A DNA stretch of 64,000 nt, from positions 32,376 to 96,375 of the forward strand of contig JBDKER010000003.1 of NCBI GenBank assembly GCA_039795165.1, in the 5' to 3' direction. The notes below the pieces were generated by a model that was not told the origin of the DNA, ran no database searches, and saw only the letters and a list, made by a program, of their open reading frames with translations. Position 1 is the first letter of the stretch; each line of letters starts with the position of its first letter. Below are positions 22,472 to 30,418 of the stretch, piece after piece. The stretch is from Verrucomicrobiota bacterium. Lineage in GTDB: Bacteria > Verrucomicrobiota > Verrucomicrobiia > Verrucomicrobiales > V1-33. A program made the position numbers and the translations under genes.

Positions 22472-23611
22472 TCAGCGCGGACGGAACTGCATGACGAGGG
22501 AATCGTAGCCCAGGGTGCGGCTGAAGGCGGCTTCGTGCTCGGTCCTCGGCTCCGCGCTCACGATTTCCATGGAACCAACCCGCTCGGCACAGAGCCGCAG
22601 CAGGGTCCGCATGATGAGGCGCGCATGGGCGGCTCCGAGGCAGAGGTGCGCCCCGAAGCCAAAGCTCAGATGCGGATTCGGCTTGCGGTCGAGCTTCACG
22701 CTCAGTGGATCCGGGAAGGCCTGCTCGTCTAGATTCGCAGACGCCCAGCACAGGGAGATGCGGTGGCCCGCGGGCACGGCCTCCCCATGCACTTCCACAG
22801 GTTCCGGGCAGACCCGCCCGATGTGCGTGAGGGGCATGAAAACGCGGAAGAATTCTTCGCCCGCATGCACGACCCTCGCAGGATCCTCCCGCAGCCAAGC
22901 CAGCGCTTCCGGATTCTCAGCAAGCCACCCAAGGGCGCAGCTGATGCTGTGGATAATGGTGTCCCGGCCACCCGCAAAGGCCAGATTCGCAAACCCCATC
23001 ATCTCTTCCCGTGTCAGCCTCCGGCCCTGGTATTCGGCCATGGTGAGTGCACTGAAGAAATCCTCTCCGGGGTCCGCTTCAGCCCGGTCGAACTGCCGCT
23101 GCAGGTATTCCTCCAGCGCCACCCCCTTCTTCAGACCACCCGCCACCTTGAACACATGAATCCCCCAGCCGATCCATGTCTCGGCCTCGGCCGCCGGCAC
23201 GTTCAGAAGGTACGTGAGCGCATGCGACTGCACCGGAAGAGCAAATCCATGCACCACTTCCTGCGGACCACCATGCAGCATGGCATCGAGACGCGATCCG
23301 ATCAGTTCCTCCACCCGGGCCACGAACTCCGGATGCTTCGGTCGCTGGAAAAACGGCTCCACGATCCGCCGCCATTCCGTGTGCTCCGGTGGATCGGTCT
23401 CAATCGGCAGCTGGCGCATGGAACGCGCGTCTTCCTCGGAAGGAATCGGTACCCGGAAGGGCGCGTCGGAACTATACGTCTTCCAGTCCTTCGCAGCCCG
23501 ACGTACATCCTCGTGCCGCAGCAGCATGACGATTTCCTCGCCGTGAAACGGACACTTGAGCACCCCAGCCTCGCGGCGGGCATCCCGGAACGGATCTGGT
23601 TGCGTAGTCAT
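22472..23611 (-). CDS. Cytochrome P450
   Basis: DPPEH, I-helix FAGGRDT, EEFFR (ExxR), heme motif FGFGAHLCLG. Confidence 0.92.
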   Translation of the reverse strand: MTTQPDPFRDARREAGVLKCPFHGEEIVMLLRHEDVRRAAKDWKTYSSDAPFRVPIPSEEDARSMRQLPIETDPPEHTEWRRIVEPFFQRPKHPEFVARVEELIGSRLDAMLHGGPQEVVHGFALPVQSHALTYLLNVPAAEAETWIGWGIHVFKVAGGLKKGVALEEYLQRQFDRAEADPGEDFFSALTMAEYQGRRLTREEMMGFANLAFAGGRDTIIHSISCALGWLAENPEALAWLREDPARVVHAGEEFFRVFMPLTHIGRVCPEPVEVHGEAVPAGHRISLCWASANLDEQAFPDPLSVKLDRKPNPHLSFGFGAHLCLGAAHARLIMRTLLRLCAERVGSMEIVSAEPRTEHEAAFSRTLGYDSLVMQFRPR

Positions 23612-23701
23612 GCGGAAAGTCTGCCCTGTACCGCCATCCCGCCCGCCGGAAAGCAGGGATTGCATCCCAGCAGCAACCGCCTCGCAGTCGCGGAAAAATT
23701 T

Positions 23702-23726
23702 CTTATTTGGAATTATTCTTGATAAG
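23702..23726. promoter_or_regulatory. AT-rich imperfect palindrome; probable Fur/PerR/Irr-family operator
   Basis: CTTATttgGAATtATTCttgATAAG. The core TTTGGAATTATTCTTGA matches 15/17 positions of the ICE consensus TTTRGAAYNRTTCYAAA and lies directly upstream of a Fur-family gene. Confidence 0.65.
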
Positions 23727-23755
23727 CTGCCAGACGTAGCTATGCCCACAAGCCC

Positions 23756-24220
23756 ATGTCCGCCCGTCCGTCATCTCCCGCAGCCACCCCGTCCGAAGGG
23801 CCTGGACTCGGTCCTGCCTATCGCCTGACGCGCCAGCGCCGCGAGGTTTACGAGATTCTTGTCAATCAGCGCGACCATCCGACGGCCACGGAACTCTTCA
23901 TCCGGGTCAAGGAACGCATCCCGAGCATCTCGCTGGCCACGGTTTACAACTGCCTCGAGGCCCTCACCCAGAATGGTCTCGTCAAGCAGGTCAATCTCGA
24001 CCGCGCGCCGTCGCGCTACTGCCCGAACCTCAATGACCATGGGCACTTCCACTGCGAATCGTGCGGCAGCATCGCAGACATCAGTTTCACTCCGGAATCT
24101 GGTTCGGTGCTCGACCTGCCGCGCGGCACGGTGGTGAGCCGCATGGACGTGGCCATCCGCGGCCTCTGTCCAAAGTGTGCCCGTACCGCCCGGGCGGGGC
24201 GCCGCTCCAGCCAATCCTGA
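23756..24220 (+). CDS. Fur-family transcriptional regulator (PerR-like)
   Basis: [35 protein letters not shown]. Confidence 0.92.
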
Positions 24221-24228
24221 ACAGCGCA

Positions 24229-24978
24229 ATGATCATGAAACTCGAAATCAAAGACCTCCACGCCTGCATCGGCGAACGTGAAATCCTCAAGGGGCTCTCC
24301 CTCGAAATTCCCAAGGGCCAAGTCCACGCCATCATGGGGCCCAACGGCTCGGGCAAGAGCACGCTGAGCAAGGTGCTCGCGGGGCACGAGGATTACACCG
24401 TGACCGGTGGCGAAGTCCTCATGGATGGACAGAATCTTCTGGAAATGGAAGTCGATGCACGCAGCCGTGCCGGCCTCTTCCTCGCCTTCCAGTATCCCAT
24501 CGAGATCCCGGGAGTAAGCAATGCCAACTTCCTGCGCGCTGCCCTGCAAGCCCGGCTTCCGAAGGGCGAGCAGATCGACGCCGTGCAGTTCTATCAGCGG
24601 CTTTATCAAAAGATGGACATGCTGAAGATGGATCGTTCCTTCACGGCGCGCAGCGTCAACGAAGGGTTCTCGGGAGGCGAAAAGAAACGCAACGAAATCC
24701 TCCAGATGGCCATGTTGGAACCGCAGTATGCCATTCTCGATGAAACCGATTCCGGACTCGACATCGATGCGCTCAAGATTGTCGCCGACGGGGTCAATGC
24801 CATGCGCGGACCCGATCTCGGCATCCTCGTGATCACTCACTACCAGCGGCTGCTCGACTACATCAAGCCGGATGTCGTTCACGTTCTCGCCGACGGACGC
24901 ATCATCCGGACCGGCGGTCCGGAACTGGCTCTCGAACTCGAAGAAAAGGGCTACGACTGGCTGCTCAAGGCTGCCTGA
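24229..24978 (+). CDS. sufC: Fe-S cluster assembly ATPase SufC
   Basis: [45 protein letters not shown]. Confidence 0.95.
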
Positions 24979-25009
24979 TCCTCCCGCTAACCCAAACGGA
25001 TTCCACACC

Positions 25010-26452
25010 ATGTCCGATTCCTTCACTGCCCATCCCGAAATCGATGAGGAAACCCGCTCAGCGGTCGATATCGACCGTTCCGTCGGCGACTTCACTTACG
25101 ATGTCACTCACAAGTACGATGCCGGCTTCGGCCTCAGCGAGCAGACCGTTGATTACATCTGCAACGTCAAGAACGACCCCGATTGGGTCCGCGATTTCCG
25201 AAAGCGGGCCCTCAAGGTCTTCAATGAAAAGCCCATGCCCACGAACTGGGCCACGAAGGATCTGGAGGCCATCGACTTCGACAAGATCCGCTACTACCTG
25301 AGCAGCGGCTCGCTTCCGAAGCGTTCGTGGGATGAAGTGCCGGAAGACGTGAAGCGCACCTTCGAGCGCCTTGGCATCCCGGAACAGGAACGCAAATTCC
25401 TTGCCGGAGTGGAGGCGCAGTTCGATAGCGAAGCGGCTTATTCCAACATCCAGAAGGCCGTCGCCGATCAGGGAGTCATCTTCGTGAACAGCACGGAAGG
25501 CCTCAAGGAACATGCCGACATCTTCCGTCCATGGTTCGGCAAGGTCATCCCGACCGGGGACAATAAGTTCAGCGCCCTCAACAGTGCGGTCTTCTCGGGT
25601 GGATCGTTCATTTACGTTCCGAAGGGCGTGAAGGTGAAGCACCCGCTGCAGGCCTACTTCCGCATCAACAGCGAGCAGTTCGGTCAGTTCGAACGCACCC
25701 TCATCATCGTCGATGAAGGAGCCGAAGTGATGTACATGGAAGGCTGCACCGCTCCGAAGTTCGAGACGAGCACGCTGCACAGCGCCGTCGTCGAACTCGT
25801 CGCCATGAAGGGCGCGAAAATCCAGTACGTCACCGTCCAGAACTGGTCGCCCAATGTCTTCAACCTCGTCACCAAGCGCGGCCTCGCTCACGAGGATGCC
25901 GAAATCCGCTGGATCGACTGCAATATCGGCAGCCGGCTCACCATGAAGTATCCCGGCGTCATCATGAAGGGACGGCGCGCCCGCGGCGAAGTCATCAGCA
26001 TTGCTCTCGCGGGTAATGGCCAGCACCAGGACACGGGAGCCAAGATGATTCATGCGGCCGACGAAACGACCTCGAATATTGTCAGCAAATCGATCAGCCT
26101 CGGGTCCGGCCGTGCCACGTACCGTGGCCAGGTCCATATCCCGAAGCACCTCAAGGGCTGCAAGAACAACACGGAGTGCGATGCTCTGCTCATCAACAGC
26201 AGCAGCCGAACGGATACCTATCCCGCCATCACGGTCCGAGGGAATCAGCACGCCTGTCAGCACGAAGCCAGCGTCAGTCAGGTGAGCGCCGAACAGATCT
26301 TCTACATGCAGCAGCGGGGACTCAGCGAAGGCGAGGCCATGAGCCTTTCCGTCAATGGCTTCATCAACGACCTCGTCCGCGAATTCCCCATGGAATATAG
26401 TGTCGAACTGAAGCGCCTCATCGACCTCGAAATGGAGGGCAGCGTCGGCTGA
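25010..26452 (+). CDS. sufB: Fe-S cluster assembly protein SufB
   Basis: [55 protein letters not shown]. Confidence 0.95.
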
Positions 26453-26454
26453 CC

Positions 26455-26670
26455 ATGAAGCGTTGGGAGTACAAGGTGCTCAAGCCCGAGGTGAGCGGAC
26501 CGCTCGGCTTGTGGGGTGGAGGCCGCGTGAGCGCGGAAGCCATCGCAGAGGAACTCAACCGGCTGGGGTCGCTCGGCTGGGAATTGGTTTCCTCCCTCGA
26601 TACCAGCAACACCACCGGCCGCACCGTCGAGGTGATCCTTCTCTTCAAAAGGGAACTTCTGCCCGCATGA
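26455..26670 (+). CDS. DUF4177-family small protein
   Basis: WEYKV...LNRLGSLGWELVS...FKR signature. Confidence 0.85.
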   Translation: MKRWEYKVLKPEVSGPLGLWGGGRVSAEAIAEELNRLGSLGWELVSSLDTSNTTGRTVEVILLFKRELLPA

Positions 26671-26978
26671 CCCACGCCGCCATCGACCTGCGCAGCCTGA
26701 TGATGCATCGCATCATCGCGGAGCGTCTGCTTGCAGATCCCTCGCTGCTGGAGATTCCGCGGGCGAATCTGGCCCGATGGAATTGCCCGGATCGCGCATG
26801 GTGGCATGAATGGTCGACCATTCTCCGGAAGCCTCTCGACGAAATTGTGTCCATCATGCTGCGCGACGACGAGGAAGGATGCCGCATCCGGCAGAGTTCG
26901 CCATTCGCCGGTATCCTCAGCCCGCAGGAGGTCTGGAAACTCAAACGTGAATTCAAGGAGAGCCATGCAGCGGCATGA
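26667..26978 (+). CDS. Small helical protein with RQSSPFAG motif; putative antitoxin/partner of DUF6036 NTase
   Basis: SLMMHRIIAERL, RANLARW, EWSTIL, RQSSPFAGIL; ATGA overlap with DUF4177 and 14-bp overlap with the next gene. Confidence 0.7.
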   Translation: MTHAAIDLRSLMMHRIIAERLLADPSLLEIPRANLARWNCPDRAWWHEWSTILRKPLDEIVSIMLRDDEEGCRIRQSSPFAGILSPQEVWKLKREFKESHAAA

Positions 26979-27501
26979 ACTTGAGCACATTCTCCGTGCC
27001 TGTGCCGGCATCACGGGACGGGATCGCTTCGTGGTCATCGGCAGCCAGGCGGTGCTGGGGCAGTTCCCTGAAGCTCCGGTGGAGCTGCTGGTTTCCCGGG
27101 AGGCCGACATCTTCTGCCCGGACGATCCCGAGGCGACAGAACTGATCGATGGCACGATCGGCGAGCTGTCTCCCTTCGAGCAGACATTTCATTATTATGC
27201 CCACGGGGTTGCGGAGGAAACGGCAGTGCTCCCGGCGGGCTGGAAAAGCCGCCTGATCCCTGTGAAGACGTCATTCACGGGCGGAGCCACGGGCTACTGC
27301 CTCGAGGTGCATGACCTCGCCGTTTCAAAGCTGGTGGCCGGCAGGGGCAAGGATATCGATTTCATTCGGGACTTGTCGCGTCATGGGATGGTACAGCAGT
27401 GCACTCTGGAGGCGCGCCTTGCCGATACCGAAATCCACCCGGAACGCCGCCCGGTCTGCGAGGGCCTGCTCCGGCGGCTTTTTCCGATCACCCAGTCCTG
27501 A
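26965..27501 (+). CDS. DUF6036-type nucleotidyltransferase (AbiEii/MenT-like putative toxin)
   Basis: LEHILRA, VIGSQA, SREADI, IGELSPF, LPAGW, DLAVSKLVAGRGKD; RBS AAGGAG upstream. Confidence 0.8.
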   Translation: MQRHELEHILRACAGITGRDRFVVIGSQAVLGQFPEAPVELLVSREADIFCPDDPEATELIDGTIGELSPFEQTFHYYAHGVAEETAVLPAGWKSRLIPVKTSFTGGATGYCLEVHDLAVSKLVAGRGKDIDFIRDLSRHGMVQQCTLEARLADTEIHPERRPVCEGLLRRLFPITQS

Positions 27502-27512
27502 TAATTTCCGCC

Positions 27513-28814
27513 ATGTCCGCTTCCGCAACTCAATCCACCACTACCTTCGTGCCCTCTGTGTTTCTCGATGCACCAAAATGGGACCATGCCGGTCTCCCGG
27601 AATGGTTCGTGCAGTCCCGGCTTTCCGCATGGGAACAGTTCACCAATCTTCCGGTGCCGCACCGCAAGGATGAGAACTGGCGCTTTGCGAATCTTTCGCT
27701 GCTGCAGTTTGACGGGTTTCACCGGCTCGCGGCGGTTCCGGTGCCGGAGGCCAGGGGGCTTGCGAAGACAGCGGCGCGCGTGGTGACGGTCAATGATGCG
27801 GTGGTTTCGTGTGAGGCTTCGCAGGTGGCCGGGCTGGAGGTGCTTTCGCTGCGCGATGCTCTCGAGCGTCATGGCGAGCGGCTGCGTCCGTTTCTGACGG
27901 TCCCGGATACGGGACTGGGCGGCGCGCGCTTTGCGGCTCTGCATCATGCGCAGCTGGCGGACGCCGTGGTCATGGTGGTGGCTCCCGGAACGGAAGTCGC
28001 GGATCCGGTGGAAATCGTGCACTGGCTTTCGGGCGATCATGCCACGGGGTTCCCGCGGACCATTGTTCTTGCGGGTGAACGCGCGAGGCTCGCCGTGGTG
28101 GAGCACCATCTCTCGGCGGGATCGGCTCCGGTGCTTTCCTGCGGAGCGACGCAGATCGATGCCGCTGCCGGGGCCGCCGTCACCTTTGTGCAGTTCAACC
28201 GTCATCATGCGGCCGGATCGGCGCTCAATCTGGTGTCGCTGCGGAGCGGGCGCGATGCCCAGGTCAAGCATGCCTCGTTCAATATCGGTTTGGGCTATGT
28301 CCGCAGCGAAGTGGTCAGCCGGGTGGCCGGGGAAGGGGGACGGAGTGACATGCTGAGTGTTTCCGTGGCGGCGGATGGACAGGAAACCGACCAGCGGACG
28401 CTGCAGGATCACCTTGTGCCGCACACGGGGAGCGATCTCCTCTACAAGCACATCCTCTTCGGGAAGGCGCGCACGATTTTCGCGGGACTGATCCGGGTGG
28501 ATGAAGGGGCGCACTTCACGGATGCCTATCAGAAGTGCCGCAACCTGCTGCTCAGCGACGAATGCGAGGCGAATTCGATGCCGGGTCTGGAGATCAATGC
28601 GGACCAGGTCAAGTGTTCGCACGGGGCGACCAGTGGCCGACTCAGCGAGGACGAAGTTTTCTATCTGCTGAGCCGCGGGATTCCGCGCGAGGCCGCCGAG
28701 CACATGATCTCGCTGGGCTTTGCGCACGAAGTCATCGACCGCCTCGGGCATGACGAAATCGAGGCGCTCGCGCTGCAGTTGCTGGAGGAACGTTTTGCGC
28801 AACTCAGTGCATGA
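27513..28814 (+). CDS. sufD: Fe-S cluster assembly protein SufD
   Basis: DENWRF, SDLLYK, QKCRNLLLS, PGLEINADQVKCSHGAT, FYLLSRGI. Confidence 0.92.
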   Translation: MSASATQSTTTFVPSVFLDAPKWDHAGLPEWFVQSRLSAWEQFTNLPVPHRKDENWRFANLSLLQFDGFHRLAAVPVPEARGLAKTAARVVTVNDAVVSCEASQVAGLEVLSLRDALERHGERLRPFLTVPDTGLGGARFAALHHAQLADAVVMVVAPGTEVADPVEIVHWLSGDHATGFPRTIVLAGERARLAVVEHHLSAGSAPVLSCGATQIDAAAGAAVTFVQFNRHHAAGSALNLVSLRSGRDAQVKHASFNIGLGYVRSEVVSRVAGEGGRSDMLSVSVAADGQETDQRTLQDHLVPHTGSDLLYKHILFGKARTIFAGLIRVDEGAHFTDAYQKCRNLLLSDECEANSMPGLEINADQVKCSHGATSGRLSEDEVFYLLSRGIPREAAEHMISLGFAHEVIDRLGHDEIEALALQLLEERFAQLSA

Positions 28815-29557
28815 GGCGGTTTCTGCGGTGCTTCCCGCTGCTGGCTCTGGCCATGGTGGTGGGCTGTGCGCACCGGACGCCGGATGCAGCGCATGGATTC
28901 GACCCACCGCGCGCCGCGCAGCCCGCGCAGACGACCTTCCTTCCGCCGGGCCCGGAATTCGGCACGCTCGCGGAGGCTTTGCAGCGCAATGCGCAGATCT
29001 TTGCGGCTACCTATGGAAGGTACCGCTGTGCTGGCGGGGCCCCGCCAGGACTTCTCCGCATGGCATTTGAGCAGCCGCGTGCCGGACAGATCCTTGGTTC
29101 CGTGGATGACGGCCGGATCTCGCTGCAGCTTGGTCCGGAGCGCCGGACCGACGACGGAGGACGGCGCACAGGCTCGCGCTACCGGCTGCGGAATGCCGGC
29201 GGCAAAGCCCTCGCGGAGTCGGAGAGCTTCCTCGCCGAAGGTCTGGTGCCTGATTACATTGAATGGTGGACGGAACTCTTCACGGATCCGGCTGGCTCGG
29301 CCTTCATGGTGGTGGAGTTCCGCTCGGGAACGGGCCCGCGGTACCATCTTTTCGTGCGCAGAGGCGACGCATGGCAGGCCCGCATGGTGTACGTCCCGGT
29401 GCGCGAGGAACCATCGCACAGCCCCATGCATTTCACGGAGCCTCAGGTGATCGGCGTCGCCGTTGGCCGGGTCTTCTGTGAAACCGACGGGGTCGTCTAC
29501 GCATTCCCGTTCAGCGAACTTGCCGAGCTGACGGATCCCGCATTCGGCATCGGGTGA
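28811..29557 (+). CDS. Hypothetical lipoprotein
   Basis: Lipobox VVGC after a hydrophobic leader; ATGA overlap with sufD; no recognised domain. Confidence 0.55.
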   Translation: MRRFLRCFPLLALAMVVGCAHRTPDAAHGFDPPRAAQPAQTTFLPPGPEFGTLAEALQRNAQIFAATYGRYRCAGGAPPGLLRMAFEQPRAGQILGSVDDGRISLQLGPERRTDDGGRRTGSRYRLRNAGGKALAESESFLAEGLVPDYIEWWTELFTDPAGSAFMVVEFRSGTGPRYHLFVRRGDAWQARMVYVPVREEPSHSPMHFTEPQVIGVAVGRVFCETDGVVYAFPFSELAELTDPAFGIG

Positions 29558-29605
29558 AGCGGTGGCTCCGGTGGACGTGGCCGCATGGGTGGTGCTGTGA
29601 TGCCG

Positions 29606-30418
29606 TCAGGAACTCTGATCCCATGCGCGGCGCAGCAATTCCGGTCCGTACAGCCGCTCAAGCCGGCGGACCGTGAAATGAGCCGTGGCCATGCGCTGGT
29701 AGTGCCCCATGAAGAGCAGGTTCACGGCGGCTCCCGCGACCGCTCCAGCGACGGGGACGGCCTTCGCTGCCAGTTGTTCTCCCACGGTCGCTCCAAAGCG
29801 ACCAGCGATCGCGTCGAGCAACCTCACGAGCGCAGGTCCGGTGCCACCCGTGGCCCCCCGGGCGGCCCACGCGGCGGCATCGCTCACCGCCGCCCCAAGG
29901 GCGGCCCGCGCGGCCCAGTAGCCACTCTCCGCCGCATCATCAAAGGGAGAATCGGATCCGAGCGCGAAGACGGCAAGGCAATCGAGACGGCCTTCGGCGG
30001 TACCGATGTCATGGCCCTGCGACCGTGCGATGTCGGCAATGCTGCGCAGAATCAGACAGGTCGACACGGGCAATTCCAGCGGCAGGGCAGCGAGCCCGAA
30101 GGCTCCACCGGCGGCTCCGCTCGCGGCCGTCATGAGCTTGTGCAGCCATGGCGATGGTTCGGACGCCTTCCGGGGATCGGATTCCATGGAGCTGAGCGCG
30201 AAGTGCGCCGCTTTCTCGAGTGCTCCCTGGACGGCTCCGCGCACGGTTTTCTGCCAGCCGGCCGGAAGGGCACCGAGTCCCTTTTCAATGGGGGTTCCGA
30301 GGACGCTGGCGGCCTGCATCGCGAAGGAAGGTGTCTCCAGTGCGATGCGCGCGGCCCGCAGCTCTGCCAGATGCTCCGGCCGCAGAGAGGTCACCAGTTC
30401 CGGCTGGGAATTGTTCAT
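29606..30418 (-). CDS. EcsC-family protein
   Basis: SGAAGGAFG..ELPVST..LRSIADIARSQG, VFALG, KAVPVAGA, HFTVRRLER. Confidence 0.85.
   Translation of the reverse strand: MNNSQPELVTSLRPEHLAELRAARIALETPSFAMQAASVLGTPIEKGLGALPAGWQKTVRGAVQGALEKAAHFALSSMESDPRKASEPSPWLHKLMTAASGAAGGAFGLAALPLELPVSTCLILRSIADIARSQGHDIGTAEGRLDCLAVFALGSDSPFDDAAESGYWAARAALGAAVSDAAAWAARGATGGTGPALVRLLDAIAGRFGATVGEQLAAKAVPVAGAVAGAAVNLLFMGHYQRMATAHFTVRRLERLYGPELLRRAWDQSS

Follow-up and report, generated by a model that had tools for sequence, protein, structure and literature searches.

Genes between sufB and sufD

We analysed a stretch of 64,000 nucleotides (the window) from contig JBDKER010000003.1 of a Verrucomicrobiota bacterium, in which three small genes lie between sufB and sufD of an operon for iron-sulfur (Fe-S) cluster assembly. 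The first encodes a DUF4177 protein, the second a protein of 103 amino acids (aa), here called the partner, and the third a nucleotidyltransferase (NTase) of the DUF6036 family. We propose, with a probability of about 0.7, that the partner and the NTase are a toxin-antitoxin (TA) pair similar to MenAT1, transcribed with the operon and held inactive as a complex, and that the free NTase would nucleotidylate an essential RNA.

The gene order and the four tight junctions, which had been described in an initial annotation of the region, can be read directly from the sequence. The stop codon of sufB (TGA, 26450-26452) is separated by a 2-bp gap from the ATG of the DUF4177 gene at 26455, whose stop codon (26668-26670) overlaps the ATG of the partner gene (26667) as ATGA. 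The partner gene (stop codon 26976-26978) and the NTase gene (ATG 26965) overlap by 14 bp, and 11 bp lie between the NTase stop codon (27499-27501) and the ATG of sufD (27513). A Shine-Dalgarno-like AAGGAG hexamer sits within the 3' end of the partner gene, 4 nt ahead of the NTase ATG. Equivalog matches above the cut-off identify sufC, sufB and sufD, all in one co-directional unit (Table 1). The first gene of this unit encodes a Fur-family regulator, for which the top NCBIfam rows are PerR/Irr types, every one of them under its cut-off. The start codon of sufB was picked by eye in an open reading frame (ORF) that is open from 24872. The order fur-sufC-sufB was likewise found in five loci of relatives (L034, L035, L037, L038 and L041).

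Table 1. Features of the suf locus (positions in the window)
Feature	Position	Strand	Basis
Fur-family regulator, first gene of the unit	23756..24220	+	PF01475, 85.8 bits
sufC (Fe-S assembly ATPase)	24229..24978	+	TIGR01978, 362.7 bits (cut-off 212.8)
sufB	25007..26452	+	TIGR01980, 613.6 bits
DUF4177 protein, 71 aa	26455..26670	+	PF13783, 36.9 bits (cut-off 25)
Partner, 103 aa, putative antitoxin	26667..26978	+	Alignment, structure model, predicted complex; no named family
AAGGAG, Shine-Dalgarno-like hexamer (putative function)	26955..26960	+	Read from sequence
DUF6036 nucleotidyltransferase, 178 aa, putative toxin	26965..27501	+	PF19502, 37.0 bits (cut-off 23.6)
sufD	27513..28814	+	TIGR01981, 229.5 bits (cut-off 222)

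Between 23400 and 30000 no sigma-70-like promoter was found (mean of 1.3 in shuffled sequence), and the three terminator-like matches in this interval, of which one lies within the DUF4177 gene (26559-26580), are all weak and compare with 4.2 expected. Rfam gave no match within 23400-29700. The G+C content is flat across the small genes, at about 0.60, and composition therefore gives no support to a recent foreign import. Neither a transposase nor a repeat can be seen at the junctions, and a search for a target-site duplication gave only a weak CCGC(C)ATG likeness at both of them. Minus-strand ORFs across the small-gene region have no Pfam family and were taken as spurious.

At least 0.88 of the sampled words from the locus were present in 16 DNA sequencing runs from at least 13 studies. 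An independent metagenome contig of 3341 nt (X16) covers 25906-28100 with 41 differences, and a contig of 995 nt (X7) covers 26632-27626 with zero differences. Since independent contigs cross the junctions, an assembly chimera is ruled out.

The nucleotidyltransferase and its partner

The NTase matches PF19502 over residues 17-149. We retrieved 3719 homologs (E-value up to 1e-3), many of them 60-65% identical across phyla, and PF19502 was found on 119 of the 120 listed, P0076 having none on record. The motifs on which the initial annotation had relied are present, namely VIGSQA at 23-28 (with G26-S27), S44-R-E46-A-D48 and K122-L-V-A-G-R127-G-K129-D130; a further motif is H116-D117. An alignment of 41 sequences shows no variation at G26, D48, D117, K122, R127, K129 and D130 and almost none at S27, S44 and H116. 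Two cysteines near H116-D117 (window approximately 27298-27459), C112 and C165, are conserved in 119 and 114, respectively, of the 120 DUF6036 homologs listed; C112, H116 and C165 may be a structural metal site.

The structure model of the NTase (predicted local distance difference test, pLDDT, 95.7) has the NTase fold that had been suspected from the motifs, and its best solved neighbours are MenT1, MenT3 and the C-domain of AbiEi. The top Foldseek match was 8an5_B, a chain of the MenAT1 complex (E = 0.1, probability 0.72). VIA-align, which was run on Foldseek's list of structures, aligned 159 of the 178 residues with MenT1 (8an4_A) at Z 8.9, with a root-mean-square deviation of 4.3 and 16% identity. 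The other neighbours were the AbiEi C-domain (Z 8.4), MenT3 (Z 7.8), ANT(2'')-Ia (Z 7.2-7.3) and LnuA (Z 7.0). The active site of MenT1, which adds CMP to tRNA 3' ends, is reported to consist of T39, D41, D43, K137 and D152 (PMC10435456). The spacing of S44-x-E46-x-D48 matches the T39/D41/D43 strand, and K122 and D130 are conserved downstream, a correspondence drawn from sequence spacing. We take the NTase to be of the Pol-beta type, with its catalytic motif intact.

The partner has no family in Pfam, NCBIfam or PADLOC. Its model consists of six helices (pLDDT 94.5), and conserved residues are R9, H14, P25, W38, W49, R75 and S-P-F-A-G at 78-82. Searches for its fold returned a best Foldseek E-value of 2.2 and, in a wide VIA-align search, a best Z of 5.1 (YdaT), which is inside the noise range stated for the tool; a search of the ESM Atlas gave unnamed clusters only. 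With a partner profile built from 37 members we obtained 4248 cluster representatives, many of which are extended at the N-terminus. Among 36 longer homologs scanned, six carry an N-terminal DNA-binding domain, which is of the ribbon-helix-helix (RHH) type in two, an Xre-type helix-turn-helix (HTH) in three and a winged HTH in one; in one form the C-terminus is HicB-like, and another is a fusion with an integrase. Plasmid genes annotated as HTH/XRE regulators and located upstream of DUF6036 genes contain the partner domain at their C-terminus (hhalign probability 98.1%, E = 1.3e-13, and 94.5%, E = 7.9e-8). By analogy, the partner family would be a modular antitoxin architecture in which a variable DNA-binding head is joined to a conserved toxin-binding domain. 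The window encodes this binding domain by itself, 103 aa long, and the early statement that the partner has no HTH is correct for this copy, though its relatives carry DNA-binding domains.

Partners in seven Woeseiaceae loci (L055, L057, L058 and L060-L063) have a basic N-terminal extension of about 50 aa that contains RGRPRK, and one member of the partner alignment matched the AT_hook family (E = 0.01). A Fic-domain gene lies upstream in two of the Woeseiaceae loci (L055 and L062).

That the NTase pairs with the 103-aa gene, as first suggested from their overlap, is borne out both by gene context and by modelling. A homolog of the partner lies directly upstream of the NTase gene, or overlaps it, in 22 of 22 loci from five phyla (Verrucomicrobiota, Myxococcota, Pseudomonadota, Thermodesulfobacteriota and Bacillota). 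The predicted complex, modelled as 1:1, scored 0.85, and the best control 0.00. Of 80 solved complexes used for calibration 58 reached the mark, as did 2 of 110 mismatched pairs; these figures apply only roughly to our case, since the alignments were our own. At least 92% of contacts are common to the runs, and the pLDDT of the partner is at least 90. The predicted interface consists of NTase residues 43-46 (S44, E46), 125 and 127-129 (R127, K129), and of the conserved 79-84 loop and N-terminal helix of the partner. The model thereby supports, short of showing it, that the partner binds over the catalytic face of the NTase; direct contact between antitoxin and toxin is a prediction of this model.

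The genome of the window encodes a second pair with the same layout (locus L002, approximately 1414-2282), whose DUF6036 NTase (G000:C4:37613-38056, minus strand) is 39% identical. Its partner-like ORF of about 107 aa is located upstream of the NTase gene, and this pair directly follows the 3' end of a gene resembling that of alanyl-tRNA synthetase.

Occupants and history of the slot

Among 38 searched genomes of the verrucomicrobial family to which the window belongs, including its own genome (G000), sufD was located in 34. The region upstream of sufD was obtained for 32, and the window proteins were mapped onto these regions; 13 of the 32 genomes belong to the genus of the window (g1) and 10 to genus g3. 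DUF4177 lies between sufB and sufD in 10 of the 13 g1 genomes and in none of the 19 genomes of other genera, in which the family, where present at all, is located elsewhere. The closest relatives, G004 (95% sufD identity) and G009 (88%), have DUF4177 there, and at the position of the pair they show only a 48-nt spacer. Because DUF4177 persists without the partner and the NTase, the three small genes are not one cassette. The cassette proposed in the initial annotation thus shrinks to the partner and the NTase, which are a conserved pair, and DUF4177 is a stable genus-level resident of the slot, separate from them. It is probably unrelated to the pair and the older resident of the two; a comparison of DUF4177 with PDB sequences gave no match.

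The intact pair was found in the slot of 6 of the 32 genomes, four of them in g1 (G000, G007, G011 and G012) and two in g3 (G027 and G061). Three more genomes contain remnants: frameshifted pieces of the NTase without a partner in G002, and the first 23 and 38 codons of the partner, with nothing else of the pair, in G024 and G033, respectively. The remaining 23 showed no trace of it by tblastn (E-value up to 0.01).

The gap between sufB and sufD is a variable slot, which also holds other sequences. In G024 the eroded partner runs into a tandem repeat coding for SSRLA(S/P)P that fills the former position of the cassette (L031, reverse strand, 181-aa ORF). A small hydrophobic membrane ORF of about 85-116 aa, without a family, follows sufB in seven genomes of g3 and g1 (G002, G010, G012, G024, G027, G032 and G033; L049 1617-1943, L048 1644-1994, L028 2018-2326, and the gaps in L031, L036, L050 and L030), and in G010 it comes ahead of DUF4177. 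In G031, of genus g2, a 300-aa gene with a signal peptide lies on the opposite strand between sufB and sufD (L044 472-1374, minus strand). In annotation, DUF4177 and the small membrane ORF should be treated as separate occupants of the slot and not be merged with the pair.

Maximum-likelihood analysis of 40 NTases places every suf-located copy, along with the metagenomic sequences closest to them, in a single clade (98/99) that is nested among verrucomicrobial copies located outside suf. A single entry into the slot before the split of g1 and g3, followed by losses, is therefore apparently the simplest history, and the three eroded copies fit it. A one-off passenger insertion can be rejected, since the same site is occupied in six genomes of two genera, three further genomes have remnants there and the copies make up a single clade; with contigs across the junctions, neither this nor the chimera considered at first applies. 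As to whether the cassette is fixed or patchy in related suf operons, the survey gave a patchy picture, yet with one suf-located clade.

Within this clade a duplicate, here called B-type, arose with a long stem branch (1.04). G012 has it as a second copy (L048 2856-3392) next to the A-type in tandem, and in G007 (L008 488-1021) and G011 (L009 411-944) it is the sole copy. The B-type no longer has S27, E46, K122, R127 or K129; position 46 is Thr, and in G007 and G011 positions 27 and 122 are Asn and Arg, respectively. The ratio of nonsynonymous to synonymous substitution rates (dN/dS) is 0.07-0.17 for pairs of A-type NTases and 0.12-0.48 for the partner.

Even close relatives differ in whether they have the pair. 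In the DNA of sufB, G000 and G004 share 95-100% identity, and G004 has no pair. Over the first ~150 nt of sufD (window 27440-27664) the identity of these two genomes is 75-88%, compared with 91-99% in the rest of sufB and sufD, and here G004 resembles G009 more. This divergence hints at gain or loss of the pair by homologous recombination, with a possible breakpoint in the 5' part of sufD. Further, a joint without the cassette, which skips 26661-27549 and has 84 other letters in between, was found in a DNA run from a lake in which the cassette form occurs as well; the same joint is present in an RNA-library contig.

Overall, the module is spread over many phyla. A homolog is present in 21 of 61 genomes (G000 and 60 relatives), some of which have several copies, and in 60 plasmid records, 29 of them conjugative and 11 mobilizable. 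This patchy and mobile distribution, the changing gene neighbourhoods and the eroded copies are typical of TA modules. Outside the family of the window, the module was found beside suf in 0 of 20 loci, which argues against a general Suf-related target of the NTase, an alternative that had also been put forward. Its neighbours there include Fic, IS200, a DUF4143 ATPase, CcdA, Mrr and housekeeping genes. Genes related to tRNA occur within 3.5 kb of the module in 4 of approximately 17 contexts outside suf (alaS-like, a class II aminoacyl-tRNA synthetase, and tgt twice; L002, L059 1700-3058, L065 7403-8473 and L054 1939-4128), too few to count as a signal.

Around the operon itself, sufD is not followed by sufS or sufE. 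Its stop codon overlaps, as ATGA, a 248-aa ORF (28811-29557, plus strand) with a lipoprotein-like signal (…LAMVVGC) and no family match, which is adjoined on the opposite strand by an EcsC-family gene (29606-30418). Upstream of the Fur-family gene a divergent ORF (22472-23749, minus strand) resembles a cytochrome P450 by sequence only; as listed, the starts of these two ORFs are 6 nt apart, so that the true starts lie further in.

Interpretation and comparison with known systems

If the pair works in the manner of MenAT1, the free NTase would be toxic because it adds nucleotides to an essential RNA, probably at tRNA 3' ends, and translation would slow. The partner would sit on the catalytic face of the NTase and neutralise it by occlusion; MenA1 (68 aa) is reported to block the active-site face of MenT1 (PMC10435456). 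It may also trigger auto-phosphorylation of S44, which is positioned as T39 of MenT1, the residue at which MenA1 induces auto-phosphorylation (PMC11375011). Transcription with the operon is most likely because the pair lacks a promoter-like site of its own; the pair would then be transcribed and translationally coupled within one unit of Fur-family gene, sufC, sufB, DUF4177, pair and sufD. The initial annotation also suggested that the upstream Fur-family repressor may control the pair, linking iron or peroxide stress to growth arrest. In evolutionary terms, the module would have entered the slot once, to be retained by some lineages and duplicated in one, while in most others it eroded or disappeared.

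Several observations weigh against this proposal. The fold scores are middling, as Z 8.9 is near the range that the tool calls common and NTases acting on aminoglycosides and lincosamides score close by. By sequence, the NTase is not a member of the DUF1814/AbiEii/MenT group: Pfam gave no PF08843 (DUF1814) row at E-values up to 0.1, hhalign of the NTase alignment against 11 DUF1814 domains from relatives gave a probability of 0.7%, and the NTase profile found nothing below E 1.4 among PDB sequences. The likeness to this group that was claimed in the initial annotation therefore extends to fold and motifs only. Neither the NTase nor the partner has a PADLOC model, and phage records gave no homolog. 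RNA support is thin, consisting of two 151-nt contigs at depth 2 from one RNA library, for which DNA carry-over is possible; one of these 151-nt contigs runs across the NTase stop codon into sufD. From the RNA libraries X17 and X19 came only contigs that are small or derived from relatives, and stretches of the cassette without RNA cover carry no information on transcription. Finally, the catalytically degenerate B-type is under purifying selection (dN/dS 0.095 at dS 0.24, G007 versus G011), which a plain toxin would not predict, and two genera house the pair within an essential operon, a long stay for a module that is purely selfish.

In an alternative that we consider unlikely, the suf clade is no longer selfish but has been domesticated as a stress brake, a regulator tied to Fe-S or redox status by cysteines at or near the interface. 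These cysteines would sense oxidation, metal or an Fe-S cluster, NTase activity and translation would track the conditions that induce suf, and the B-type NTase would be an additional regulatory subunit. We compared the suf-located clade (27 NTases and 18 partners) with distant homologs (93 and 154, respectively) and found only seven clade-specific positions, of which three are cysteines: C40 of the partner (17 of 18 against 0 of 154), C72 of the partner (16 of 18 against 3 of 154) and C51 of the NTase (26 of 27 against 0 of 93). The others, R45 and A57 of the NTase and M12 and N39 of the partner, lie beside the catalytic strand or the interface. C40 and R45 are inside the predicted interface, but C51 and C72 are outside its confident residues. 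The single clade that spans two genera under purifying selection agrees with domestication, as does the Fur/PerR-like regulator encoded by the first gene of the operon, and so does the retention of the degenerate B-type under selection in G007 and G011 alongside partners that keep both C40 and C72. One clade is, however, one evolutionary event, and the pair is dispensable, being missing from the closest relatives G004 and G009 and, in all, from 23 of the 32 family genomes, with a cassette-less variant even in the same lake sample; elsewhere the module is unlinked to suf. If true, Fe-S or oxidative status would decide whether a tRNA-modifying NTase is neutralised, a translation brake wired into the SUF operon.

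A main role in phage defence by abortive infection, as in AbiE, appears distinctly unlikely. The fold resembles the AbiE/MenT group, and the neighbours of the module elsewhere include Mrr, the DUF4143 ATPase and other TA genes, but the locus is an essential operon and no defence island. The initial annotation had offered defence as one assignment; PADLOC made none, with no match for any of the four proteins tried.

NTases of the MNT type are known antitoxins, and if the roles were reversed, as they are in HepT-MntA (HEPN-MNT), the effector would be the small helical protein, which the NTase would neutralise by nucleotidylylation. R9-x4-H14 of the partner has the Rx4-6H spacing of HEPN proteins, is well kept in distant representatives (R9 in 135 and H14 in 125 of 154) and lies in the predicted interface region. 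The HEPN motif is located on the last core helix, whereas R9-x4-H14 is on helix 1, and R9 is replaced by E or Q in several verrucomicrobial members. No HEPN structure was among the fold matches of the partner, of which the YdaT match quoted above, itself in the noise range, was the best. The fusions to RHH and HTH domains are an antitoxin feature, and the order with the small protein first is that of MenA-MenT. The HEPN reading of the motif is not supported, and we regard reversed roles as very unlikely.

Most improbable of all is a small-molecule nucleotidyltransferase with a regulatory subunit, which would modify antibiotics or metabolites like ANT(2'')-Ia or LnuA: these enzymes score near the MenT structures, some 1.5-2 Z units under MenT1, but strict pairing with a partner predicted to cover the active site, DNA-binding fusions of that partner, eroded copies, patchiness and the lack of a match to any resistance-gene family speak against it.

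A full-text search of the literature returned no paper naming DUF6036, and among the titles listed for DUF4177 none concerned suf. For toxin-antitoxin and suf operon, no module inside a suf operon appeared among the titles and abstract starts listed, and a search joining antitoxin, nucleotidyltransferase toxin and iron-sulfur cluster gave only an unrelated preprint. On our reading, the pair is of the NTase TA kind, with a new antitoxin domain and a family that is absent by name from the literature searched. That it lives within a suf operon is unusual, and the association is apparently ancient. Taking DUF6036, a large family, together with its partner domain as a MenAT1-like TA family gives both a testable function and would extend the nucleotidyltransferase toxins by a branch. 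In the lineage embedded in suf, nature offers a case of long residence in an essential, stress-induced operon. Because this lineage shows a duplication, catalytic residues lost while selection continued, and cysteines specific to the clade, it is a good system for the question of domestication.

Pfam describes DUF6036 (PF19502) as a 'nucleotidyltransferase of unknown function' and records neither function nor partner; NCBI labels homologs of the NTase, itself a member, 'DUF6036 family nucleotidyltransferase'. With MntA-HepT the pair shares the combination of a Pol-beta NTase and a small helical protein with Rx4H spacing, and differs in its opposite gene order, the position of the motif on helix 1, the lack of a HEPN fold match and the DNA-binding domain on the small protein. 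AbiEi-AbiEii and MenA3-MenT3 (COG5340 antitoxin and DUF1814 toxin) have a similar NTase fold, as seen in MenT3 and in the AbiEi C-domain, a C-terminal motif of K...R...RD.YD consensus in the DUF1814 alignment that resembles the K...R..KD-like motif here, and an N-terminal DNA-binding domain on the antitoxin, which here occurs in relatives; the NTases described here are about 100 aa shorter, and the partner domain is unrelated to COG5340.

MenA1-MenT1 (Rv0078B-Rv0078A) differs in that DUF1814 has no detectable sequence relation to our NTase, in that MenA1, at 68 aa (PMC10435456), is unrelated to the six-helix partner of 103 aa, which has no known fold, and in forming a MenT1-MenA1-MenT1 trimer where we modelled a 1:1 complex. 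In both systems the gene immediately ahead of that for the NTase (approximately 180-190 aa) encodes a small antitoxin, putative in our case, that lacks a DNA-binding domain. MenT1 is the best structural neighbour and shares the Ser/Thr-x-Asp/Glu-x-Asp strand spacing, and the location of the antitoxin over the active-site face, predicted here, is the one reported for MenA1 (PMC10435456).

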